From the sequence record NC_023593.1: a stretch of DNA of 64,000 nt; one strand, 5' to 3'. Source of the stretch: Escherichia phage KBNP1711. Below the pieces are notes generated by a model that was not told the origin of the DNA, ran no database searches, and was given only the letters and a program-made list of their open reading frames with translations. Positions 3,186 to 63,645 of this stretch are shown here, piece after piece. The translations under genes and the position numbers were made by a program. The stretch's first letter is position 1. Every line of letters begins with the position of its first letter.

Positions 3186-3677
3186 ATGGATAATGTCGCA
3201 TTGCCACCGATACAACTGAGCTTAAGCCCAGAAGGGATGGAATTCATCATGAAGCATGAAGGTATGAGAACTCGTGCTTACCAAGATTCCGCAGGTATCT
3301 GGACGATATGTGTTGGGGCTACGCGCGATATGAATGGGTATCCAGTTAGACAGGGATTAACGTATTCTATAGAGGATTGTCTAGCTCTGCTAGATAGAGA
3401 CACACAAGACTCTGTTCGTGCCACTCAGAAAAATATTAGGGTTCCTTTGTTAACCCACGAGTTTGATGCTCTCACCTCTTTCAACTTCAACGTTGGTGGT
3501 GGAGCTTTATCAACTTCTAAACTTAGGAAAGTTATTAACGGGGATGTGAAGGGTGATGTTTATTCTGAGTTCCTCCGTTGGGATAAAATTACAGTTAAAG
3601 GTAAGAAGATTAGTAGTCCGGGGTTGAAGAATCGTAGAACTGCTGAAGCTGATCTTTACACTGAAGGTAAATACTAA
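3186..3677 (+). CDS. lysozyme (glycoside hydrolase family 24-like muramidase)
   Basis: EGMEFIMKHEGMRTRAYQDSAGIWTICVGAT motif typical of phage GH24 lysozymes; GGGAGGTG RBS. Confidence 0.8.
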   Translation: MDNVALPPIQLSLSPEGMEFIMKHEGMRTRAYQDSAGIWTICVGATRDMNGYPVRQGLTYSIEDCLALLDRDTQDSVRATQKNIRVPLLTHEFDALTSFNFNVGGGALSTSKLRKVINGDVKGDVYSEFLRWDKITVKGKKISSPGLKNRRTAEADLYTEGKY

Positions 3678-31031: not shown

Positions 31032-31102
31032 TTACAACTCCTTAATATATCAGTGTACACTAAGGAGTATACATTATGAGAGGGTAGCTTTAGTTGCCAG
31101 CT

Positions 31103-42843: not shown

Positions 42844-43077
42844 TTAGATACCTTTAAGTTTAAGAATTTCGTTGCGAGTACGTTGGATACGTTCTTCAAG
42901 AGTGTGATAATCAAAGATGCAGATCTCTTCTGCTTCATCAGAAGGTGCATCCATTAAACCCATAGCAATCGGATACACTTTTCGCTGTTCCGTTGTCATG
43001 TTCTGTAGCCGGAGTCGTTGATACTCCAGCAGGGTAATTTTCGGCTTGTTAGTTTCCTTGCTTGACATGAGGCTCAA
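42844..43077 (-). CDS. hypothetical protein
   Basis: 77-aa ORF. Confidence 0.3.
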   Translation of the reverse strand: MSLMSSKETNKPKITLLEYQRLRLQNMTTEQRKVYPIAMGLMDAPSDEAEEICIFDYHTLEERIQRTRNEILKLKGI

Positions 43078-43282
43078 CCTTGATACCTTTCAGTTTCACA
43101 TAGTCAGCCAGCACGTTGTTAATAACTGTTGGGAAAGGAATCTCAACAGGTGCATTAACTAACCCACCAATACCCTCTTGCATCCACTTCTGGATTGCAC
43201 GAAGGTTATCACATCCTGTGCTTGTCATTGGAATACGGCGAGTGGTTACAACGTTATCCAACATCATCTTACGAATTTCCAT
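43049..43282 (-). CDS. hypothetical protein
   Basis: 77-aa ORF. Confidence 0.3.
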   Translation of the reverse strand: MEIRKMMLDNVVTTRRIPMTSTGCDNLRAIQKWMQEGIGGLVNAPVEIPFPTVINNVLADYVKLKGIKVEPHVKQGN

Positions 43283-43292
43283 AATACACCTC

Positions 43293-45311
43293 TTAATTAT
43301 GACCTTTACAGTGCACTGAATCGCACACCACTTGATTGGTATTGTTTAGTGTGCAGAGTTCTGCATCACGCCACGGAATCTTTTTAAAACAGACTGCACA
43401 AAACCCCAAAGTAGACCAGAGGGCTTTTGTGAAGGTTGCTGAACGGTTTCCATCGGAAGAGGCAACTGTTCTGGTAATTGAGACTTTTGACTCACGAAAG
43501 GTTTCCGCTACTGGAGCGGATTCCTCCTTTGGGGTAGTCACTGCAATAGCATAAATACCACCCCAACGCTTCTCAATGTAAGCACCGAATACATCTTCCA
43601 GAGTGATTTCACTCTTACGCTTGGTTGAGGATTCCATGACAACCATGTTGTCCAGAATCTTTTGATCGACACGAAGAGCTACTTCAGGACGTCGAGCACT
43701 TGTTGTATCAACACACTTAGTCCAAACATAACCCTCTTTCAGGGTGACTTGAGTTGCTTGCTTCTTTGCTTTATTAGCACAGATTTTACAAACATCGTCA
43801 CCACGAAGTTTACTGAACTCTTCATCAAATTCAAAGTCAGACTTCACTTCACCGCACACCGAACAAACACCGATAGGAATCTCATCCTCTTCAACGTCTT
43901 CTACTTGCTTCTGGATAGAATCAAAACAAGCTTTATGCCAATATGCTTGGTATGCGAAGATTGCACTTGGGGCTTCTTTCCAGTCGATGTGCTTATCACA
44001 GCCACCACAATCACCATGGGAATGGGCTTCCCAGAACTTACGAGTGATAGTCACCCCATTCTTGCTGACAAAACTATCCTCTGCATCAAAAGGGATATCA
44101 TCATCGAAATCAGCTGTAGTGCTTTCCGGCTCCTTTTTCGACAAGTCAAAGAAGTGACCAGAGATCAACACCAAACGAATCATGCTATTAACTTCAGAAA
44201 TACAGCCAACCGTACCACGGTAAACCATATGCTTATTCTTAAGAGCAGCTTCGTAATCAGTTTGCAGGATGTTATGAACATCACCCTCAATATACTCTTG
44301 AGCTTTGTCATCATAAATATAACCAACCATCTTACCGCGATCGGTATCTTTATAACAAACAAACTCGTGAGGAATAATATCAACCTGCATATCACGACGG
44401 ATATCAACACCTTTGTCAGATGCGATCTTGTTTTGTTTCAAGATTGCTTCACGACGACGTACATCACCTGCGGTTACGCCGGGCTTTCTTTGCTCGTCGC
44501 TGTTCCCGTTTACGTAACTTTTTATCCCGCTTGAGTGATTGTTGCTGTAGCTGTTCGAGTAATAACTTCCCCAACGCGTTGCTACCGTAAAAACCGGGAG
44601 TTCATGTACGACCTCCTCTACCAAAGTCATCTTGTTGTCAGAAACATCAAAGATGTACTCTGTACCGACTTTACACTCAAAGTGCTCATCGATTCGATTC
44701 TTGTGGCTCTTAGAACGCTGAAGAATCCACATCAACATAGCTTCTTCTGAAGCACCAAACCATGAAGTTCCCAGACGGGCCAGATGGAATGGACGCTCAT
44801 CGTTGCGAATGATGTGAAGACGGTTATCACTTGCATCATGCCAGATCAGAGTGAATGCACCATCCAACTTCTGAATAGTCTCTGCTGCACCAATCTTGTT
44901 AATAGAGTGGCAGATGTTCTCACTATCAACCTCAAAAACCTTACTGTCAGGCAGAAGGTCTTGATCAACTAAGGTTCCGTTATGAACCAGAGTGATGTTT
45001 CCGTGAGAGAATGGGTGAGCGTTACGTGAGTTAATAGCACCTTTCGTAGCATGTCGGCTATGACCAACAATCCATGAAGGAGGCACTGTGTAATTAGTAA
45101 GGCCAGTTGTCAGCTCGGTGTACTCTTTCTGTAACATGAAAGCATAGGAAGGTAGTGCTTCTTTGTAAGAGAACACAGATCTTTCGCTTTTACGCTGACC
45201 GAAAATACCAGTTGAGTGTTGACCACGAAATACACCAGCATAAAGAAGCTGGTTGTAAACATCTAAGTCATAACTTGAGAGGCTTCCACCTGCTAATACG
45301 ATACCACAAAT
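43293..45311 (-). CDS. class-II (Ntn) glutamine amidotransferase domain protein with long Cys-rich C-terminal extension
   Basis: Hand translation upstream of track start gives (ATT)-CGIVLAGG...VFRGQHSTGI...HNGTL; SD AGGTGG 8 nt before ATT 45311; track ORF begins at GTG 45176. Confidence 0.6.
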   Translation of the reverse strand: MCGIVLAGGSLSSYDLDVYNQLLYAGVFRGQHSTGIFGQRKSERSVFSYKEALPSYAFMLQKEYTELTTGLTNYTVPPSWIVGHSRHATKGAINSRNAHPFSHGNITLVHNGTLVDQDLLPDSKVFEVDSENICHSINKIGAAETIQKLDGAFTLIWHDASDNRLHIIRNDERPFHLARLGTSWFGASEEAMLMWILQRSKSHKNRIDEHFECKVGTEYIFDVSDNKMTLVEEVVHELPVFTVATRWGSYYSNSYSNNHSSGIKSYVNGNSDEQRKPGVTAGDVRRREAILKQNKIASDKGVDIRRDMQVDIIPHEFVCYKDTDRGKMVGYIYDDKAQEYIEGDVHNILQTDYEAALKNKHMVYRGTVGCISEVNSMIRLVLISGHFFDLSKKEPESTTADFDDDIPFDAEDSFVSKNGVTITRKFWEAHSHGDCGGCDKHIDWKEAPSAIFAYQAYWHKACFDSIQKQVEDVEEDEIPIGVCSVCGEVKSDFEFDEEFSKLRGDDVCKICANKAKKQATQVTLKEGYVWTKCVDTTSARRPEVALRVDQKILDNMVVMESSTKRKSEITLEDVFGAYIEKRWGGIYAIAVTTPKEESAPVAETFRESKVSITRTVASSDGNRSATFTKALWSTLGFCAVCFKKIPWRDAELCTLNNTNQVVCDSVHCKGHN

Positions 45312-45385
45312 TTTCTAATCCACCTGAAGGGTAAACCCTTTCATCTAATTAACCTTTAATTGTGCCCCTTTCGAGGCACCCATTG

Positions 45386-46486
45386 TTACAGCAGTCGTTC
45401 TAACTGAATTTCCAAGTGGTCTGGAATATACTCAGTGACGTTGTTATCAGAGACGCCAGATTCACGCATCATGTTGAGCATGTTACGAATCTGCCCTTCT
45501 GTTGCTTCACGAGTTTCACTAATCTCTGTTTCATACAGAGCCATGATCTCGTTATGAACATCTTGAGCATTACCACGGACATATCCGAGGAAGCCATAGA
45601 AGTCAGACATATCACGAAGGGATACAACTACCGACCCACTACTATCAAGAGTTTGTAAACGAATACGCCCAACCTGACGCACAGATCGGTTACGACAGAA
45701 CAGGATATCACGAGCCAGACGATAACCGCTATCAAGATCTTCGTGTCTTGGGGTGTAGTCCAGAGGTAGGTGCGGGAGCATAGGGTCAAAACGAACCCTG
45801 TTGAGCATCTCAACAAACTCTTCATTGTCCATCTCTGCATTTTCAACTGCTAATTTCTTAAGAACCAAGAAGCGGTTTACCAGATTTAACAGCTGACCTT
45901 TCTTCCACTTAGGCTCTGAGATACGGAACTCAACAGAACCGAACTGAGCCAGAGGGAGTAGGTTGAGTGATGTGTACTTATCCCAACGGTCGACGATATG
46001 TCGGAAGAAGTTCTCACCTTCGTAGTTAAATGCTTCAGAAGCGTTCATTACTTGAGCCTGAACCACTGCAAAAGCAGGACAGAAATTACTACGGTAACGG
46101 TGATAACCAGAGCACTTAAACATCAATGCTTCATAGAAAGTCCACCCAAGGATAACTTTCTTAACGATATTGCTATCAGCATCTCGCATATCCATATGAA
46201 CGTGAGTGGAACATCGCCAAGTCCCTTCTGCTTCGGACTCCATCACTGCCTCACTCAGATTGTTGATAGCGTCAAACAGTTCTACACCATTGTAAGGGCG
46301 AGAACAGACCATTTCACATCCGTTGCGAAGCGAGCCATCCTCTGTACATTCCCACATATCTGCTTCGATATGATCGTCACCTTCAAGCTCCAGCTCAATA
46401 CCAATACCGCATTGGAATGCGATACTCGGATGTGCTTCACTCAGACGATTACTACGGTATCCAAAAGCTTGCGCTACAGTTGTCAT
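45386..46486 (-). CDS. glutamine synthetase-like amidoligase (carboxylate-amine ligase) candidate
   Basis: IGIELELEG near N-terminus and CSTHVHMD resemble the Glu-x-Glu and His-x-His metal motifs of GCS2/amidoligase enzymes. Confidence 0.45.
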   Translation of the reverse strand: MTTVAQAFGYRSNRLSEAHPSIAFQCGIGIELELEGDDHIEADMWECTEDGSLRNGCEMVCSRPYNGVELFDAINNLSEAVMESEAEGTWRCSTHVHMDMRDADSNIVKKVILGWTFYEALMFKCSGYHRYRSNFCPAFAVVQAQVMNASEAFNYEGENFFRHIVDRWDKYTSLNLLPLAQFGSVEFRISEPKWKKGQLLNLVNRFLVLKKLAVENAEMDNEEFVEMLNRVRFDPMLPHLPLDYTPRHEDLDSGYRLARDILFCRNRSVRQVGRIRLQTLDSSGSVVVSLRDMSDFYGFLGYVRGNAQDVHNEIMALYETEISETREATEGQIRNMLNMMRESGVSDNNVTEYIPDHLEIQLERLL

Positions 46487-47106: not shown

Positions 47107-47913
47107 TTACGCTACCTGTAAACGTTTCAAGAACACATCTGCTTCACGAACATCGTTGGTGTTGATGATCTGGTGCAGCTTTTCAATCGGAAGGCGAGAG
47201 TGGAGGCTCATCAAGAACTCCATGTCGCTATTTTGTACAACCTTGTCAACTTGATCGTACACGAATTGACGATCTTCTTTCTTGCCAATCCAGAAGTTCG
47301 ACAGAGAGCGATACTCAATGCCATAAGGTTTGTAACGGATTGCGGATGCTTTACCGTACAGCTCTTTACGTCGAGTATCACCATCCATCAGAACAGCAGG
47401 CAATGACAGGAAGTAATCACACAGAACGCCCAGCATCATCTGAACCTTCTTATTCACATCCAGAGAGCCAGTGACACCAATGTGCACATGACCACCTGCT
47501 GTACGCAAGCCCTTGTTCTCTGAAGTTGGAGAAGCATTCTTTTGACCAGTGAATGCGTTGAAGTCTGGAGTACAACCAAACACGAAAGCGGACGGATGGA
47601 ATGATTCCAATTCCTCTTTAGAGAAGATATGAGAACTTACACCCAGAGCCGCTTCCATGTCCTGTTTCTTCAGAACTTCGTTGGTAAGATCAATACCGCG
47701 CTGAACGTTGTCATTAAACGCTTCAAAACCTTGTTGTGGGTTGATATCAAACTCAGCCAGCACGTTGTCTTCTTGGAGACGTACATCCTTAGCCAGATCG
47801 ATTTTATTTTCTTTAGAACAACCCAGCTTGCCAGCAACAGAGGTGATGATGCCAGAAGAAGTACGAACAAACATCTCTGGGTCCGTTCCAATTAAAAAGA
47901 TGCGCTTAGTCAT
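47107..47913 (-). CDS. glutamine synthetase/GCS2-like amidoligase candidate
   Basis: Internal Met start MTKRIFLIGTDPEMF and RTAGGHVHIG motifs. Confidence 0.45.
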   Translation of the reverse strand: MTKRIFLIGTDPEMFVRTSSGIITSVAGKLGCSKENKIDLAKDVRLQEDNVLAEFDINPQQGFEAFNDNVQRGIDLTNEVLKKQDMEAALGVSSHIFSKEELESFHPSAFVFGCTPDFNAFTGQKNASPTSENKGLRTAGGHVHIGVTGSLDVNKKVQMMLGVLCDYFLSLPAVLMDGDTRRKELYGKASAIRYKPYGIEYRSLSNFWIGKKEDRQFVYDQVDKVVQNSDMEFLMSLHSRLPIEKLHQIINTNDVREADVFLKRLQVA

Positions 47914-48835
47914 TATAGTATTCCACCAATTCTTTAAAGAGGGATATGATTGTTTCTTTGTTGCTCTCCATATTAGAGCCGCAACGACTTTCAATACGTT
48001 CTAAGAAACCATTTACATTGATGTTAGAAATCTTTTCATCAAGAGATGAACGTTTCCAACCAGTGCTCATAGACCAAACTCTCAAAAAGGTACTCATTGA
48101 AGAGTACATCTCTGCGTTTTGGTTTCGACGACGAGCAATACGACGAAGAGCTGCACGGTCATGGTTTCGGATATACCCTGATGTGTTATCACCTTCTCCG
48201 ACTTTGTTTTGCAACCAAACGTCGGTTGAAAACTCACCTGTATTGCAAATAATCGGAAGAAATGCAAATGCTGGTAAATCATGCGGTAAATAGATAGATG
48301 TTGATTCGTCAGTGGAGTCATTAACTCTATCAAAGTTAAGCTCCCCAAAGAAGTCCTTACTTACCCCAGCAAGAGCTAGAGCTAATCCAACACGACGACG
48401 GAATAGCCATTCTTCTCTATCATCAACTCCCTCTGAAAGAAAATCCATAGATTCATACTCGCAATCGAGATAGCTACGGAAAGTCATTAGTCCTGTAAAA
48501 ACTTTATCTGCTGCGTGTTCACGAAGATCAACCTCTACACTATTAGCAGAAGTTATTGTGAACATATCTTTGTACATAGAACAGGAGTTCAGTACATCAG
48601 CAGTATCCACCAAATGAGACTCAGTCTCATCCATGTTGCAGTGGGGCCAGTAGTTAATCTTACCCATGTGCGCTGTGAAGTTATCCAAGCTGGTTCGAGT
48701 ACTCAGGCCGTTAATGTCACGAGTGCTAAAGTTGTGCATAGAGTTGTGGATACCGAAACAAACTCGGCTCGCAAAACTCTGCTCACCCAACATATCACTA
48801 ACTTCTACAGGAGCTAATGTTGTGGAAATTGCCAT
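47906..48835 (-). CDS. hypothetical protein
   Basis: 309-aa ORF. Confidence 0.4.
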   Translation of the reverse strand: MAISTTLAPVEVSDMLGEQSFASRVCFGIHNSMHNFSTRDINGLSTRTSLDNFTAHMGKINYWPHCNMDETESHLVDTADVLNSCSMYKDMFTITSANSVEVDLREHAADKVFTGLMTFRSYLDCEYESMDFLSEGVDDREEWLFRRRVGLALALAGVSKDFFGELNFDRVNDSTDESTSIYLPHDLPAFAFLPIICNTGEFSTDVWLQNKVGEGDNTSGYIRNHDRAALRRIARRRNQNAEMYSSMSTFLRVWSMSTGWKRSSLDEKISNINVNGFLERIESRCGSNMESNKETIISLFKELVEYYND

Positions 48836-52551: not shown

Positions 52552-52982
52552 ACATCCTCCAATTAAACATTTATATAAGACTTGCTTAGATAAAGATTCA
52601 ATAAAATAGGGGGAGGGGACGAATCCTCCCTTATCCTATTAATTAATGTTGCATGTAAGATCTAACAATCGGTTGCCTTTGTAGGAATAAGCATTATGCT
52701 AATCCAGCACTAAACTCCCGCCCCCTTAGTGGGCTGGGTTATTAAAGGGTAACGCCCTTATGGGCTAGTTACGTGAATGTTAGTTTGATAGGAGATCTGA
52801 AGTCCTATCTCAAAGGACTCTCGTAAGAATCCTTCACGATATTACTTATTCATTTCTCGTCGGCTATCTCTCCAAGCCAACCAAGTGTAGGTTTTCAGCT
52901 CTTCAAAGTCTTCTGGAGAGAATAGATATTCTTTGAAGGTGTCACTAAACCACTCTAAAAATTCTTCAGTCATAATAACCTC

Positions 52983-57217: not shown

Positions 57218-57607
57218 TTATTCATGAGCATCATTATTGAACACTAAATCACCACAATACATCGGATTGGTATACCACTTTGGCACCCCCTCGCTCTTAC
57301 TCTGAAAGTAGGTTCCACTATACAGAGGAACATAATTCTTCTTGAGAGCACGTCTAGCAAGCTGCTCGCTTTCTCTTATGGCTTGTTTAGTCATAGGATT
57401 ATCATCACGAATCAGCTTTACATAACGTTTATAAGGTTTCTCCTGTTTTAATAGTACCGGAATCCACTCAAACTGGTTCTTTTGTCTTATCACCTGTTCA
57501 GCGGTCAGTTTTCGTTGGGCCATTCTATTTATCACGGTATCCGCAACTAAAGCCTTACATGCGGTTGGCTGATTCCCTGCCTCATAATAAATAGTCAATG
57601 TCAACAT
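57218..57607 (-). CDS. cell wall hydrolase (SleB/Hydrolase_2-like)
   Basis: IYYEAGNQPTACKALVADTVINRMAQ...QFEW resembles the SleB-type hydrolase core. Confidence 0.55.
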   Translation of the reverse strand: MLTLTIYYEAGNQPTACKALVADTVINRMAQRKLTAEQVIRQKNQFEWIPVLLKQEKPYKRYVKLIRDDNPMTKQAIRESEQLARRALKKNYVPLYSGTYFQSKSEGVPKWYTNPMYCGDLVFNNDAHE

Positions 57608-57687
57608 TAGCTGGGCCGTTGTTATCAGAACTTGATACCTCCTGTTTTACGGGCATAAAAAAGCCCCAGCCGTAGCCGGGGCGGTTA

Positions 57688-57810
57688 TTAACGTGATACT
57701 GCTTCCATGAATCCTATCATAAGTATCAATAAGGTGATAATAACACCAAAAAGCATACCACATAGGAAGAAAAATCCACCTTCACCTAGATATGAAATAG
57801 CTGATTCCAC
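57688..57810 (-). CDS. small hydrophobic membrane protein (40 aa), holin-like candidate
   Basis: GTG start with AGGAG 6 nt upstream; almost entirely hydrophobic; immediately upstream of the hydrolase. Confidence 0.35.
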   Translation of the reverse strand: MESAISYLGEGGFFFLCGMLFGVIITLLILMIGFMEAVSR

Positions 57811-57831
57811 AGATAACTCCTACAGCAACAC

Positions 57832-57853
57832 AAAAAGCCGCTCAAAGGCGGCT
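57832..57853 (-). terminator. - strand terminator (agccgc-tcaaag-gcggct + T run)
   Basis: 6-bp stem; T-run on - strand. Confidence 0.45.
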
Positions 57854-57929
57854 ATGTGGAAGCTTCAAATGGGGAGAGGGCACGGGGCACAGAGAAACGT
57901 CACAGTAGTTGCAAAGAATCCACTCGCTA

Positions 57930-58373
57930 TTACTTAACTCTTGCCTCTTTGATAGGGTCAATATACTTTTCAACTCCCCACTTATGTTTGCTGTCTGCGT
58001 AGAATACGTCAGGTGCACACTGGCTTGTTTTAGGGAAGGCTTGCGGGTCTTTGGTGCTCCCTTTAAACTTCTGTTTACCACGGGTGCGACCATTACAGAA
58101 GATTTCTAACTTCTTCTCTTCTTCTGTTTTAGCTCCCCCGCTCTGTAACAAAGAGCGTTTATGATCAGCTAACAATAACGCATCAGCACGATGAACGCGA
58201 TGGCCTACACGTTTTGCCACACTAGAAGGAATATGAGATTCAGCCTCAGCCCTTGCAGCACGACGTTTTAAACTACGCTTACTGACGTGATTGGTTGCCT
58301 TTGGTTTTTCTTTCTCCAGTTCAGAGATAGCAAAACAGCGCCCGCCCTTCATGCTGATTTTAGATTTAGCCAT
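57930..58373 (-). CDS. basic Lys/Arg-rich protein
   Basis: 147-aa ORF. Confidence 0.4.
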   Translation of the reverse strand: MAKSKISMKGGRCFAISELEKEKPKATNHVSKRSLKRRAARAEAESHIPSSVAKRVGHRVHRADALLLADHKRSLLQSGGAKTEEEKKLEIFCNGRTRGKQKFKGSTKDPQAFPKTSQCAPDVFYADSKHKWGVEKYIDPIKEARVK

Positions 58374-58442
58374 TATCTAATTCCTTTCAGTGATAAGTTA
58401 TATCGTGCAAGCCCATCATAGGGATAGGCTTAACCAAATAAC

Positions 58443-58652
58443 TCAATTGAGTAAACTAAATGATTTCCAACTACGCAACAAAACTGTTCCGTCATCCATT
58501 GCTACACTTAATTGTAGTAACTTCTTATTAATACTGCTTACTGTTAAAATCCGTCCAGTTGTAGATTTACCTTTATTGCTATAAAGATACACGACACGAC
58601 GACTCAATAAACGGGATGGCGCTTTCTTAAATTCAGATATATTGGTGATCAT
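58443..58652 (-). CDS. hypothetical protein
   Basis: 69-aa ORF. Confidence 0.35.
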   Translation of the reverse strand: MITNISEFKKAPSRLLSRRVVYLYSNKGKSTTGRILTVSSINKKLLQLSVAMDDGTVLLRSWKSFSLLN

Positions 58653-58873
58653 GATGCTTGATACCTTTGAATGTATTCAATACGGGTGGATTGAGCAAAT
58701 GACGCTTTAACCGCCATCTTTCTAACTTCTTCTTTACGCTGGTTAGTGTGTACAGTATCCCAATGCTTGTTATCACGTTGGCGCTGTAGTATCTTACTGC
58801 ATTTTCGATGGTTTCCCGTGCTGCGATGTTTCTCACAAATAGGACACTTGCCAAAATTGCTACTGAATATCAT
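58649..58873 (-). CDS. small basic zinc-finger-like protein
   Basis: CPICEKHRSTGNHRKC; preferred over the overlapping frame 58633..58854. Confidence 0.35.
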   Translation of the reverse strand: MIFSSNFGKCPICEKHRSTGNHRKCSKILQRQRDNKHWDTVHTNQRKEEVRKMAVKASFAQSTRIEYIQRYQAS

Positions 58874-59097
58874 TTTCTTAATCCCAGCTTTCTTAAGATA
58901 CGGCCTAACGTTGTTTCTTGCGTGATAATATAGCTGATCGCTTCACGTTCCAACGTTTCAATCTTCATCGGCGACGGATACCATTCACCGGTAATAACGC
59001 ACTTACATTCAACGCCATACTTTTCAGATAGGCGGTAATGTTGACCGTTGACAAGATTTCTATAAACCGTGGTATGTGTAGTTAACATGATCGTCAC
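58870..59097 (-). CDS. hypothetical protein
   Basis: 75-aa ORF. Confidence 0.35.
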   Translation of the reverse strand: MTIMLTTHTTVYRNLVNGQHYRLSEKYGVECKCVITGEWYPSPMKIETLEREAISYIITQETTLGRILRKLGLRK

Positions 59098-59150
59098 CTT
59101 TGATTAAATTCTTTGATTAATGCACTGAATCAATGCACTGATAAAAGAAA

Positions 59151-59176
59151 AGGCGCTACCCGTTAAGATAGCGCCT
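59151..59176. terminator. hairpin with perfect 8-bp stem AGGCGCTA/TAGCGCCT, A-run upstream and T-rich downstream
   Basis: Read directly; lies between two - strand genes. Confidence 0.45.
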
Positions 59177-59199
59177 TATGTTTATTTAGATTGTCTTAC

Positions 59200-60099
59200 T
59201 TATGCTGCGTTACGTGCTGCCATGATCTCAGCTGCCTTGCGCAATACTTCTTCTTCCTCAGCTTTTGCAGCTTGTTCGGTACGGATTGCTACCGTTGAAG
59301 AGATACGACCGCGCAGGCTTTCTAACTTCTCCTGCATTTTGGCAATGGTGGATTCCATTTCATCGGCATACGAATCCAGTGATTCCAGTTCCTTGCTTGA
59401 TGCGTTCATCAGATAATCATCAGAGATCGCTACCGTTGAAGCCGTGACTTTCTTGATGAGTGAGTCAAAGGACTTCTTAACCTTGCCTACTTCTTCACTC
59501 AGGGCAATAGTATTATCACTGGTAGCGCCGTTACGCTCATCAGCCAACAATTTTGCTTCAATACGGATTGCATTTAAGCGTTCAACCAAAGCGTAAATAT
59601 CTTGGTTAAAATCTTCCTTGTTTTTCGCCGGGATTTGCAGGTGTGCCGCCACGTTGTCATTGCAACCCTTGTAAAAGTTAGGGTTATCTACTTCAATTTC
59701 ACGACCTAACGCAAAGTTTTCGAAAGCGTTCGACCAGCGAGCGCGATTCTGTTCCATTTTGGCCTTAATTTGCGCTTCTTTCGCATCTTCTTTCGCTTTC
59801 GCTTCACCTTCCAGATTAATCCACTTTTTACGACCGTTTGCCGCATCGGTGTTAAACTTGACAGGAGTCAGGAAAGTGATTGCAGTGGCGATCACATCCA
59901 TATCACGAAAACGCTCGGTTAACAGAAAATCGACCGCCGCCTGCAATACGTCTAACTTTTTACCGTTGCTGCGGAAGTGCTGCAAATGACCTAACAGAAA
60001 ATTAGAAACATCTTGCTTAATCGCCGCGTTATTGCTACGAATGTTGTTAGCCAGTGCGTTAAAACCAGACTCTTTTACCAGATTAAAAATTTTAGCCAT
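59200..60099 (-). CDS. hypothetical protein (300 aa, helical, Ala/Lys/Glu-rich)
   Basis: ATG 60099 with AAAGGTG upstream; track start 60108 is GTG; first gene downstream of the ORF-free region. Confidence 0.5.
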   Translation of the reverse strand: MAKIFNLVKESGFNALANNIRSNNAAIKQDVSNFLLGHLQHFRSNGKKLDVLQAAVDFLLTERFRDMDVIATAITFLTPVKFNTDAANGRKKWINLEGEAKAKEDAKEAQIKAKMEQNRARWSNAFENFALGREIEVDNPNFYKGCNDNVAAHLQIPAKNKEDFNQDIYALVERLNAIRIEAKLLADERNGATSDNTIALSEEVGKVKKSFDSLIKKVTASTVAISDDYLMNASSKELESLDSYADEMESTIAKMQEKLESLRGRISSTVAIRTEQAAKAEEEEVLRKAAEIMAARNAA

Positions 60100-60108
60100 G
60101 ATATTCAC

Positions 60109-62064
60109 CTTTCAATTGTAAGGGCACTATGCCCCGCTCTCTATGAGCTTTTTAAGTCGCCATTGACTTATCAATATCCACTCATTGTTAAGTAATTATT
60201 GATAAGTGGGGCGGTCTTATCAGAAGTTAACCTTGCCGCCCCTTTATCTGTGATGTTTCATCTGGTATCTTTAATTAGTCGCTATAAACGAAGCCGACCT
60301 GATAGCGATGATCAATCATCACAATAAGGCAGTGCGTCCGACTCTAATTAGTTACTTTATTGTAACCGTCGGCAATATCGTCTACTTTGCTTTCGCTCTC
60401 GCCTATCCTTTTATACTAACTCTCAATCGCTAACCATCGCCCACTACGGGAGGTTATTGCGAAAGAGTCATTAGCCGTCTAATATTCCGACGTTTTATAT
60501 CTTTCGGCAAGTTTACTACATAACCCGACTATGTACTTTCATCTTGTGATGAATCTCAAGCCGTTCGCATCGTAAACGTTCACACTAAACCTTATTGTTA
60601 AATAGCAATTTGCCACTTTTTAACCACTCCCCGCCGCTCTCAATTGAGCGTTAATTAGTCGGGCTTGCCTACCCTGATTAACTTCTTTCACTGTAGCACC
60701 ATGTTAGCGATGGCCGCCGCTACCCTTAACCGTGGGCGATTAGTTTAAGCCTTTGCGTGTACTCAATGAATCCGCTTATCAGTGGTGACGTTTCCAGTTA
60801 AGGGATTGTGAGATTGTTTTCTCTGATAGTCTAGAGAATCTCACACCGTTTTATCTGGTATGCTGTCCGATGGTTATTATCTTCCAGCATATTTAACCGA
60901 TATAGGAGAATGTTTAAATTGTTAAAGAGCGGTAAATCTATCAACGTGCTTTCTCACGTTATGCAACTGTTAGCCGTTGTTACGCTTTTCACTGAAGCGG
61001 TGATTTGCTTAAGTGGTGCTCATTATGGACCATGTTGTTTTTGCCGTCAATCACTTTTTTAATCTTTTTCGTCGTTCCCGCTATTGGGAGGATATATCAA
61101 CCCGCTTTATTGGGTTGAAGATTAAGCGATGAGGCTTAACCCATGATTCATACTGTTAAAGAGCGTTTAGCCTTTTATAGTGTCTGCTAATCACTGCATC
61201 ATTAAAGGCTTACTTATTCATTAACGGGGCGCCTAAGCCCGAACTACCCGCTGCACTATGTGCCACCTTTCCCGCGATACGTTGATTTGGGAACTAGTTA
61301 ACGTTGTTTTGTTAACTTGTGGTTAGTATGGACTACCTTAACCACGTTTGCAACCTCTTTTTTATCATCTTCTTTTATTCTTTTCCCTTATCTCGCGTGA
61401 ATCTATGCGAAAGGGCAAGATGATAAGTCTGATTTGTCTTTTAGGAATCTAGTGCGCTTTCAAGCATTGACCATTTGAAAGTATCGAACAAATGAGGCTT
61501 ATTTTGTTGCTCATCGTCCGCCTGTTCACGTATGAATCAGGAATCAATTCTAGTGGTCAACTAAGCGCCTTATAGTAATGACGTTCCCGCCACCTGTAAG
61601 ACAAATCATATTTTTAAAGAGCGGGATTTTTCAAGTCATCGCTGACTATGCTCACTATATATCAGGCTTTTTCCGGTGTCAATACTCTTTTTCAAGTATT
61701 TTCACTTTCTAGCCTGATTTTTAAAGAGCGGGGCAATTTCTTGCCTTGTATGTTTTACATCGTACCCGATGAAATGAAGTATACATTAATCAGATGAGGT
61801 TGCAATAGGGTAAAGCAAATTATTTTAAACTTTTTGAAAGGTGGGAAGTATAAGAGAATGCGCGCGGGATAACATACCCAAAACAGGCTGTAAATCACTT
61901 TCTAACGTCCTGTAAGCCATTCTAATGAGCTAAAAGGAGGCAAGGTATACAATCACCTTAGAAAAGAAAAAAGCCTCATAGCGAGGCTTACAGGAAGGAT
62001 TAGAGAATCAGATAGATTATGACCATAGGCATGACCACGGCACAATATAAGAGAAAGATTAAGC
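60109..62064. other. 1.9-kb ORF-free region with dispersed short repeats; candidate origin, terminal or regulatory region
   Basis: No ORF of 60 aa or more in any frame; four TTAAAGAGCG copies (60931, 61165, 61614, 61731); inverted repeat CTTATCAATA/TATTGATAAG at 60176-60214. Confidence 0.5.
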
Positions 62065-62430
62065 CTATGGATTTATACATTGACCGTTACCGGATGCCAC
62101 TTCATTCATAGACTCATCGAACAAGGTTAGGGATGAGCGTAACAGGTGATCAATCGTGATTTGTTTACCAGTAGTTTCATTTACCAGTAAAATAGTTTTA
62201 CTATCTGATTGCACATGATCAAAATCATTTAAATGCAAAATAATAACCTTAGGTGACTTTTTACCAGTCGAATAGTTTTCTATCAAATAGGTGCACTGTA
62301 AACCTTCCACCGTATCATGGGAGAATGTTGCAGCCTTAACGCTACCCACAGCCGATAGGAGCACACCCAGCAGGAGAACGACCAGAAAAAACCCTACAAC
62401 CGTTTTAACGACGAATTTAATAAACCACAT
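62065..62430 (-). CDS. exported or membrane-anchored protein
   Basis: ATG 62430; N-terminal hydrophobic segment FLVVLLLGVLLSAVGSVKA. Confidence 0.4.
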   Translation of the reverse strand: MWFIKFVVKTVVGFFLVVLLLGVLLSAVGSVKAATFSHDTVEGLQCTYLIENYSTGKKSPKVIILHLNDFDHVQSDSKTILLVNETTGKQITIDHLLRSSLTLFDESMNEVASGNGQCINP

Positions 62431-62619
62431 AGTAATCAACCTTCAATAATAAGTTTAAGAATATCGAAAGCGGCAACAATCAATAAATAGTTTAAAGAAA
62501 TGAAGCCAATGACAAACAAAAACAGAAACAACACAACCGGACCTCAAAGGATGTAAGAATAAAGCATATCAGCGACGAATATCGCCACTGTAACGACGAA
62601 CAAGCAACGCCAGAAACAA

Positions 62620-62883
62620 TCATGAAGCATCATTGACACCCTCAACAAAAAATGATACGCTGATTTGTTCCACTTCTTCCAGCGACAACAGAATCCCACA
62701 TCGGGCTAAATACTTCCCAATGGTCAAATAGTCCTGTACTAAATAGACCGCAGGAAAGCTAATGGTTTTTATCTCACCCTTAGTTAGAAAGGACAAATAA
62801 GTGTAGTCGATTGACTCATCAAAGGAGAGCGTAACGCCACCATAATTATGCGTGTCAATCAGCGCAATAGTTTCAGTTCCCAT
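62620..62883 (-). CDS. hypothetical protein
   Basis: Track ORF 62620..62988 trimmed to internal Met to limit overlap. Confidence 0.3.
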   Translation of the reverse strand: MGTETIALIDTHNYGGVTLSFDESIDYTYLSFLTKGEIKTISFPAVYLVQDYLTIGKYLARCGILLSLEEVEQISVSFFVEGVNDAS

Positions 62884-63139
62884 TAGTATCATCCCCATTA
62901 AGCCCATGATTAAGCAGGTTGGCCAGTGATAAGCCACCGTCAAAATAAATTGAACGGAAGTCATCGCGGGTAATTTCAAGATCAGCAAACATTAGCCAAT
63001 TTTTAGCCTGCTTAAAACCCATCTTGCAAAAAGTGATAATAGGCACTGTTAATTGACCATCCAGAGTATTAAACATAATTTCGGAACGACCGACAAAACA
63101 AGAAAAACCATTAGTAAACTTAACTTCTTTGATAGCCAT
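62873..63139 (-). CDS. hypothetical protein
   Basis: 88-aa ORF. Confidence 0.35.
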   Translation of the reverse strand: MAIKEVKFTNGFSCFVGRSEIMFNTLDGQLTVPIITFCKMGFKQAKNWLMFADLEITRDDFRSIYFDGGLSLANLLNHGLNGDDTNGN

Positions 63140-63153
63140 AATTATAACTCCTA

Positions 63154-63645
63154 TTATTTAGCACTGATGCAGTTAGATAGGTTAATATGTACAGTATAAA
63201 CCGCATTATTTTCGCTATTGTAAACCGTGGTGGCAAACATTGATTCGTTCATCGGGCCATAACTAACCAGATTCGTGACAGCTTTCGCATGACTGTAACG
63301 TTGTATAGTGCCGAAGGTAACTAGTTCGGGATCGTTATCAGTACGCTTGAGAACTAGATCACTGTTAGGCTGATTGTCTAGTGTTTTGGTACTAACGACC
63401 AGACCATCACGGGAAACGTTACTGAATTTAACTTTTAACACGATTTGATTGGTGTCACTATCCGCACCGTTACAGACTAGCCATTGCTTAGGTGCATCCT
63501 TAACGAATAGACTAGCGGCATCACTAGCAACAGGAGCAGGACTAGCAACAGCGTTATCAGAAAAAGAAGTTACCAGTGCACTGACACCGATGACTGTAAC
63601 CAGCGCATAACTTGCCAGATTAATAGCCTGCATTACTTTCGCCAT
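63154..63645 (-). CDS. secreted protein with N-terminal signal peptide
   Basis: MAKVMQAINLASYALVTVIGVSALVTSFSDNAVA signal-like N-terminus. Confidence 0.45.
   Translation of the reverse strand: MAKVMQAINLASYALVTVIGVSALVTSFSDNAVASPAPVASDAASLFVKDAPKQWLVCNGADSDTNQIVLKVKFSNVSRDGLVVSTKTLDNQPNSDLVLKRTDNDPELVTFGTIQRYSHAKAVTNLVSYGPMNESMFATTVYNSENNAVYTVHINLSNCISAK

Follow-up and report, generated by a model that had tools for sequence, protein, structure and literature searches.

In Escherichia phage KBNP1711, a phiEco32-like E. coli podovirus, translation of a class-II (N-terminal nucleophile, Ntn) glutamine amidotransferase (GATase) very probably starts at an AUU codon (45311–45309, minus strand) directly ahead of the codon for the catalytic cysteine. 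The gene lies in the 64,000-nucleotide stretch of record NC_023593.1 analyzed here (hereafter the window; features in table 1), whose closest DNA relatives are EP335 and KarlSchell_Bas89 (97.6–97.9% identity over the query). A preliminary description of this DNA had read the frame correctly: on the minus strand it runs ATG (45344–45342) AAA GGG TTT ACC CTT CAG GTG GAT TAG (45317–45315) AAA ATT (45311–45309) TGT (45308–45306) GGT ATC GTA, and translates as MKGFTLQVD-stop-KICGIVLAGG...FRGQHSTGI. The in-frame TAG is followed by AAA and ATT only before the Cys codon is reached, which leaves no ATG, GTG or TTG in that interval, and a Shine-Dalgarno (SD) sequence, AGGTGG (45325–45320), is separated from ATT by the 8 nt ATTAGAAA. 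The mechanical list of open reading frames (ORFs) puts the start of the gene at GTG 45176; across the whole window, which holds 49 non-overlapping ORFs of at least 120 aa, the amidotransferase is the sole complete ORF with a long open frame (46 codons) before its first canonical start.

The position of the start is indicated by comparison with distant relatives, ten of which carry ATG at the exact position of this ATT, before the Cys codon and behind an ordinary SD (among them Proteus P59, Vibrio Vp_R1, Cronobacter GAP52, Salmonella PKM.Hi.22.6 and SE131, Aeromonas LAh_8, E. coli PJNS034, Pseudomonas Bjorn and PaP3), which puts ATT at the homologous start position. The window thus has ATT where its orthologues have a canonical start, with an in-frame stop and no canonical in-frame start upstream, and with an SD at a functional distance. 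The surrounding sequence is rigidly conserved. A 45-nt core, TTAGATGAAAGGGTTTACCCTTCAGGTGGATTAGAAAATTTGTGG, which includes TAG-AAA-ATT-TGT, is 100% identical in 95 of the 97 matching phage records (phiEco32-like), and the surrounding coding DNA of those records is only about 80% identical. Extended to 56 nt (45359–45304), it is the longest exact block that the window has in common with both phiEco32 and ECBP2 within 5.1 kb (the runner-up has 24 nt) and the longest anywhere between 4 and 52 kb; of the 137 such blocks in the window as a whole, it is the 10th longest. The TAG-AAA-ATT-TGT arrangement is not a product of chance. As for the other nine of the ten longest three-way blocks, most are found at 57561–63384 (57.5–63.4 kb) and reach up to 106 nt, and isolated blocks occur at 52785–52848 (64 nt) and 3354–3421 (68 nt).

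Downstream of the start, the 44 codons from Cys1 to GTG 45176 have evolved as coding sequence: 24 of their 35 differences from phiEco32 fall at third positions and differences between genera are mostly synonymous, so this stretch is translated. These data bear directly on the suspicion that TAG or ATT arose through faulty sequencing or assembly, or that the gene is decaying into a pseudogene and its product, lacking the cysteine, starts at GTG 45176. Automatic gene callers do choose GTG 45176, and EP335, ECBP2 and SU7 were deposited with downstream starts; however, 95 genomes that were sequenced independently share the identical sequence, and coding-type substitutions and invariant catalytic residues lie ahead of the GTG. 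The sequencing error allowed for in the preliminary description is excluded by this identity, and the conservation already refutes error and pseudogene alike, to which we assign a negligible probability.

Read from the cysteine, the product is recognizable as an Ntn amidotransferase, matching Pfam GATase_6 (4e-14, 53.1 bits; curated cut-off 27) and GATase_7 (2e-6, 28.5 bits; curated cut-off 25). A search of PDB structures with the single sequence gave zero matches and a family profile was needed; with 13 diverse phage homologues the profile matches GlmS, PurF and AsnB, and its position 1 aligns to residue 1 (Cys1) of mature E. coli PurF (1ecb/6czf). C1, G2, R28, G29, H31, G34, H109-N110-G111 and D128 are invariant in alignments of 13 and 25 diverse members, and by analogy R28, H109-N110-G111 and D128 would be the glutamine-site residues (Arg, the Asn-Gly oxyanion hole and Asp). 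Every Ntn class-II amidotransferase requires Cys as residue 1. Here the Cys codon adjoins the start codon, and removal of the initiator methionine would leave the catalytic cysteine at the head of the mature chain. Initiation at AUU under direction of the SD, yielding Met-Cys, as first proposed in the preliminary description, is accordingly favored by homology of the ATG position, invariance across 95 records, coding evolution downstream and the alignment of Cys1 to PurF.

The in-frame ATG at 45344 invites a different reading, in which translation starts there, the UAG is read through and a propeptide of 11–12 residues is removed autocatalytically, as in Bacillus subtilis PurF. Propeptides are found in some Ntn amidotransferases, the length here is propeptide-like, and enzymes of the B. 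subtilis PurF type belong to the same superfamily and share the need to expose Cys1. Those enzymes, however, have a continuous ORF with a canonical start and an 11-residue propeptide, whereas here a stop codon breaks the frame two codons (AAA, ATT) before the Cys codon and distant relatives begin directly at Met-Cys. Additionally, the SD is positioned to suit ATT and not read-through, TAG serves as a genuine stop, and the only tRNA in the window is tRNA-Arg-UCU, which leaves the window without a suppressor tRNA. Two other ATT lineages (L052 and L053) lack a canonical start in the open stretch ahead of the in-frame stop, so read-through cannot explain the family-wide ATT pattern; the propeptide suggested in the preliminary description does not generalize to the other ATT lineages, which have no in-frame upstream start, and we regard it as very improbable. 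A recoded genetic code with TAG as a sense codon, for which the rarity of TAG as a stop (2 of 49 long ORFs) might speak, has almost no probability at all: TAG does end ORFs, no other gene in the window requires read-through of an in-frame TAG, as many genes of a recoded phage would, and the host E. coli uses the standard code. Stop-codon recoding, also considered in the preliminary description, is excluded by the use of TAG as a stop together with the lack of a suppressor tRNA in the window.

The ATT start of this gene is already present in public annotation, having been deposited for phi32_83 (EU330206/NC_010324, 2008), SU10_085 (KM044272) and the BASEL phages, Bas89_0080 (PQ850613) among them; phi32_83 and Bas89_0080 have the same length and start as the window gene. 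These are orthologues with conserved synteny (ATP-grasp, GATase, amidoligase, COOH-NH2 ligase) and an identical 56-nt leader, from which the window differs in nothing material; its near relative EP335 was deposited with a downstream start. Most other records miss the ATT start: in a spread sample of 60 of the 97 core-bearing records, a coding sequence (CDS) covers ATT in only 8 of 55 annotated records, and the downstream start codons in the EP335, ECBP2 and SU7 records lose the cysteine. Our literature searches found no account of an ATT start in phage amidotransferases, and none discussing or testing the start of the phi32_83 type.

Several considerations weigh against an AUU start. Nine peptides of the amidotransferase of SU10, which has the identical core, were seen by mass spectrometry and count in favor of the start, but the SU10 supplements are without peptide lists and no N-terminal peptide was found in them. 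AUU is a poor start codon, and any share of re-initiation after the short upstream ORF (uORF) that begins at ATG 45344 is inseparable from de novo initiation. The reading of low or regulated expression (see below) rests on analogy with infC and pcnB. Finally, three metagenomic loci in the family comparison (L103, L113 and L148) are ambiguous, with a canonical in-frame codon 8–13 codons upstream.

To place the start in the context of the family, we collected 153 loci from IMG/VR in two scans with family alignments and de-replicated them to 122 non-redundant leaders. The codon before Cys1 is ATG in 101 of these, ATT in 12, ATC in 4, TTG in 3 and GTG in 2; when proteins are clustered at 70% identity, ATT occurs in 13 and ATC in 4 of 111 clusters. 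Gene starts in E. coli are 83% AUG, 14% GUG and 3% UUG, with infC and pcnB the sole confirmed AUU starts (10.1101/063800), and the excess of ATT and ATC (ATY) over GTG and TTG in this family is therefore far from expectation. In thirteen other ATT/ATC leaders, as in the window, an in-frame stop lies upstream and the interval up to ATT/ATC holds no canonical start codon. One SD-to-start spacing is common to 14 of 16 ATT/ATC leaders versus 25 of 101 ATG leaders (Fisher p=2e-6), which is what a weak start codon reliant on optimal geometry should show. A stronger SD compensating for ATT was considered and rejected, as ATY and ATG leaders show no difference in SD duplex energy (p=0.29). A neighbor-joining/Fitch reconstruction gives a minimum of 17 changes between ATY and other starts, a count that is unreliable at about 40% identity and confounded by leader swapping, and we therefore claim only multiple origins or transfers of ATY starts. 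The recurrence of ATT/ATC starts across this enzyme family is, as far as our literature searches found, undescribed.

Two further leader types were seen in this collection. In the one, GGAGATGAGAAAAT[TC]TGTGG (L037, L052, L103 and L154), an out-of-frame ATG inside the spacer opens a mini-ORF of 6–7 codons, MRKFVE/D-stop, that overlaps the GATase start; the SD is too near this ATG to serve it. A −1 frameshift from the out-of-frame ATG of GGAGATGAGAAAATT leaders was rejected as an explanation, there being no slippery heptamer, and the window leader has no such ATG. In the other, TGGAGAT(T/A)TTATT is followed by ATT or ATC (L113, L131, L138, L148 and L166; L162 has TTG). This type has no obvious hairpin abutting the SD, so the hairpin described next accompanies some non-canonical starts only.

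The leader of the window folds into a hairpin that ends 1 nt 5′ of the SD, and structure of this kind distinguishes ATY from ATG leaders. For positions −38 to −12 the median minimum free energy (MFE) is −4.8 kcal/mol among ATY leaders versus −0.1 among ATG leaders (Mann–Whitney p=9e-6), and composition-controlled z-scores of leader MFE separate the two groups likewise (p=2e-5). The idea of a hairpin ending 0–2 nt before the SD arose post hoc on a first sample and held in a second. A scan of viral and metagenomic contigs with the 18-mer GGATTAGAAAATTTGTGG recovered nine further distinct GATase leaders, all of which read AGGAGG-ATTAGAAA-ATT and are structured at −38 to −12 (−5.4 to −10.3 kcal/mol); seven of the nine have a clear stem of at least 5 bp that ends at −15/−16, with differing stem sequences, the exceptions being L187, which folds less regularly, and L211, whose hairpin lies further upstream. 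The spacer ATTAGAAA with ATT-TGT-GG is identical in at least eight other GATase lineages, whose proteins are 25–51% identical to one another and to that of the window.

A covariance model seeded on six of the 18-mer lineages, the window not among them, finds exactly one site in the 64-kb window, at 45304–45346 on the minus strand (E=6e-6), and in about 550 kb of related loci all of its matches below E=1e-3 lie at ATT/ATC GATase starts. In the resulting alignment 98.5% of cells pair, versus 46% in shuffles and 29–40% when partners are slid, changes on both sides occur in five of five pairs, and the covariation score is 1.05 versus 0.20, a value reached by none of 500 shuffles. Two cautions apply: the alignment was fitted to the model, and seeds make up 6 of its 15 rows; among the non-seed rows, six of nine pair at all five positions. 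An alternative MFE fold that would bury the SD was rejected: it is broken, without compensation, by both substitutions in the leader of Aeromonas phage BUCT695, in which the stem of the SD-free hairpin is intact and the change falls in the loop only, and the SD-free hairpin is backed in other lineages. In Rfam the window leader had no match at E<0.5 and seven related loci had none at the gathering score, and no second copy of the leader motifs occurs in the window. As far as our literature searches found, this covarying, SD-abutting hairpin is undescribed.

Candidate roles for the hairpin are to keep the SD single-stranded or insulated from upstream structure, to assist docking at the 30S platform, or to bind a factor. 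The T4 gene 43 operator and the thrS operator have a short hairpin next to the SD of the gene they regulate, and the architecture, a hairpin directly 5′ of the SD, is the same here. Unlike in those operators, however, no binding protein is implied, and loop sequences vary between lineages, which makes factor binding less likely and argues against one shared, sequence-specific ligand. The loop CAAGA is common to L208 and L212, whose stems (GCATGT/ACATGC and CCTGA/TCAGG) are unrelated, and L204 carries CAAGC, possibly a sign that the loop is recognized in some of the lineages.

The leader also contains a 9-codon uORF in the frame of the amidotransferase, and the uORF may contribute to initiation. 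Under termination–reinitiation, ribosomes would translate the uORF from AUG 45344, melt the hairpin, stop at UAG 45317–45315 and restart 3 nt on at AUU, aided by the SD. Such a route is one form of AUU initiation and no alternative to it, and re-initiation as a contributor is possible. The geometry is that of E. coli infC, which encodes initiation factor 3 (IF3) and has AUU after an in-frame stop with a 3-nt gap (UAA GGU AUU in infC; UAG AAA AUU here); in thrS-infC reporters re-initiation and de novo initiation contribute about equally (PMC3592434). The uORF AUG and UAG are kept in all 95 records and in BUCT695, and AAGG lies 8 nt before the uORF AUG. Against this, the uORF is not singled out, because everything in the leader block is conserved; the uORF of BUCT695 has no SD, and both BUCT695 changes lie inside it and are non-synonymous; and L052 and L053 have no comparable in-frame uORF. 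Taken as the principal route, we therefore consider termination–reinitiation unlikely. The infC case differs further in that its upstream cistron is the full-length thrS gene and in that the logic of IF3 autoregulation, obvious for infC, is absent for a phage amidotransferase. We know of no SD-abutting hairpin at infC.

Under AUU initiation, whether de novo or assisted, the SD AGGUGG would place the 30S subunit at AUU 45311–45309, the initiator formylmethionine (fMet)-tRNA would decode AUU, and deformylase and methionine aminopeptidase would then take off fMet, making Cys (45308–45306) residue 1; AUU initiation by fMet-tRNA and Met removal that exposes Cys1 both accord with established knowledge of bacterial initiation and of Ntn amidotransferases. 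What stands out is a weak start in a rigidly conserved initiation region, with an SD-abutting hairpin, fixed spacing and an A-rich spacer, which would hold enzyme output down within an early transcript that is long and polycistronic, possibly in dependence on IF3 or on host state. In E. coli reporters AUU and AUC give 1–2% of AUG output with Met as the N-terminal residue (10.1101/063800), or output 6–8 times below AUG (PMC3592434), and AUU mRNAs are poor competitors, above all at low temperature, when nutrients are limiting and in the presence of ppGpp (PMC5499595). The weak AUU start of infC makes its output sensitive to IF3 (PMC3592434; 10.1101/063800), and the AUU start of E. coli pcnB, which encodes poly(A) polymerase I, likewise holds down enzyme level (10.1101/063800). 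From the weak output and poor competition of AUU mRNAs we infer a low, possibly host-state-dependent level of the amidotransferase: most likely the leader module holds the enzyme at a low level, and by the same analogies output may possibly depend on IF3, nutrient or host physiological state. The pcnB protein is unrelated, and the pcnB start alternates with AUG, GUG and UUG across phyla, whereas ATT/ATC here outnumber GTG/TTG by about 3 to 1. Over-expression of pcnB is toxic.

Translation would then be the sole gene-specific control of the amidotransferase within the long early operon. A promoter reading of the leader was rejected: the coding strand has no sigma-70-like site, and nothing matches the consensus of phi32_gp36-dependent promoters, tAATGTAtA, located 6–8 bp upstream of the transcript start (PMC8948821), the window leader reading TAAAGGTTA at the corresponding place. 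In Grimontviridae (L005, L007, L015, L021 and L025), TTTAAATGTAAA, which resembles this consensus, lies between the intercistronic hairpin and the SD, about 20–35 nt before the GATase start, where phiEco32-like phages have TTTAAAGGTTAA; in BUCT695 a transcript start 6–8 bp downstream of that promoter-like site would land on the uORF ATG. Elsewhere in the window, the 43-nt three-way block at 31036–31078 holds TATACATTA, so that the gp36 promoter consensus TAATGTATA, its reverse complement, stands on the minus strand.

The distribution of leaders among proteins suggests that, at the sequence level, the leader behaves as a swappable cassette, which is undescribed as far as our literature searches found. 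BUCT695, a member of the Grimontviridae, has a phiEco32-type leader at 43/45 identity, although the nearest relatives of its GATase are those of the ATG-start GAP52/SE131 group (60–63% identity); identity is 56% to the closest phiEco32-group member compared and 51% to the protein of the window. L071 (ATT) and L064 (ATG), a pair that also speaks for ATT as the counterpart of an ATG start, encode proteins that are 97% identical behind upstream sequences that are unrelated from the start codon outward. L187 and L203, whose proteins are identical, have the SD-spacer-ATT core in common but unrelated hairpin-forming sequences 5′ of it. Proteins behind the identical 18-mer are otherwise only 25–51% identical. 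In BUCT695 (L015, about 2300–2500), the region from the amidoligase-like gene to the leader contains apparent homing endonuclease remnants, MDKVLKKITHQGDCWLWTGCINSDGYPKE-stop, followed by an XRE-type helix-turn-helix-like stretch, and endonuclease-driven co-conversion could have brought the phiEco32-type leader to this phage. We tentatively hypothesize, as a possibility with less than even chances, that the hairpin, SD, 8-nt A-rich spacer and AUU/AUC form a mobile cis-regulatory translation cassette dedicated to phage Ntn amidotransferase genes, which was repeatedly selected and exchanged between lineages and ties enzyme synthesis to some host signal affecting non-AUG initiation (IF3 level, ppGpp/nutrient state or temperature) or to a hairpin-binding factor. 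If so, the cassette does more than lower expression.

Table 1. Features of the amidotransferase locus in the window (all on the minus strand).
Feature	Position	Strand	Basis or remark
Class-II (Ntn) glutamine amidotransferase CDS, phiEco32 gp83 orthologue	43293..45311	-	ATT start, TAA stop; 671-residue mature protein from Cys
GTG start of the annotation track, an internal Val codon 45 codons past the true start	45174..45176	-	ORF list; coding signal upstream
Perfectly conserved 56-nt leader block	45304..45359	-	Three-way exact identity
TGT codon, catalytic N-terminal nucleophile Cys1, predicted to be exposed once Met is removed	45306..45308	-	C1-G2 invariant; alignment to PurF 1ecb residue 1
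ATT initiation codon (AUU), predicted to be read as fMet by initiator tRNA	45309..45311	-	ATG position of 10 distant relatives; invariant in 95 records
A-rich 8-nt spacer ATTAGAAA with in-frame TAG (45315-45317) inside	45312..45319	-	Spacer recurs in other GATase lineages
9-codon uORF MKGFTLQVD-stop, same frame; UAG 3 nt before AUU	45315..45344	-	Sequence; BUCT695 keeps MKGLTLQAD-stop
Shine-Dalgarno AGGTGG	45320..45325	-	Sequence; SD spacing in the family
Leader hairpin AAGGG-UUUA-CCCUU, ending 1 nt 5′ of the SD	45327..45340	-	Centroid fold; BUCT695; covariance model; pair count
Intercistronic hairpin, 7-bp stem, GAAA loop, right after the amidoligase stop codon	45362..45379	-	Fold; ECBP2 stem changes retain pairing
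Amidoligase (Amidoligase_2), upstream neighbor in the phiEco32-type ligase/amidotransferase cluster	45386..46486	-	Pfam; synteny with phi32_84

The neighbors of the gene are an amidoligase, a COOH-NH2 ligase and an ATP-grasp enzyme (Pfam), in the order of phi32_80 to phi32_86. The intercistronic hairpin upstream of the leader is not a typical intrinsic terminator, because no T-run follows it; in ECBP2 and SU7 the stem differs (GGGCGC...GCGC) and pairing is retained. HNH endonuclease genes occur nearby in Bas89: one is inserted just downstream of the GATase (L001 4719–5228) and is absent from the window (43049–43293) and from EP335, and the COOH-NH2 ligase CDS is joined from two pieces around another (L001 1–894; compare window 47107–47994). 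The C-terminal 420 residues of the GATase (about 250–671; 43293–44560, minus strand) have no Pfam match and hold several CxxC pairs (e.g., CGGCDKH...HKAC, CSVCGEV...CKIC and CAVCFKK...CDSVHC), a pattern that suggests zinc-ribbon-like modules fused to the amidotransferase domain.

Most deposited genomes of the phiEco32-like group truncate the enzyme and delete its catalytic cysteine, so that function predictions or expression constructs based on those records would be wrong. Confirmed starts outside AUG, GUG and UUG are extremely rare in bacteria (10.1101/063800), and a family of phage enzymes with AUU or AUC starts in about 13% of its lineages, together with fixed spacing and a covarying hairpin next to the SD, offers a natural series for how weak starts work and what they sense during infection.

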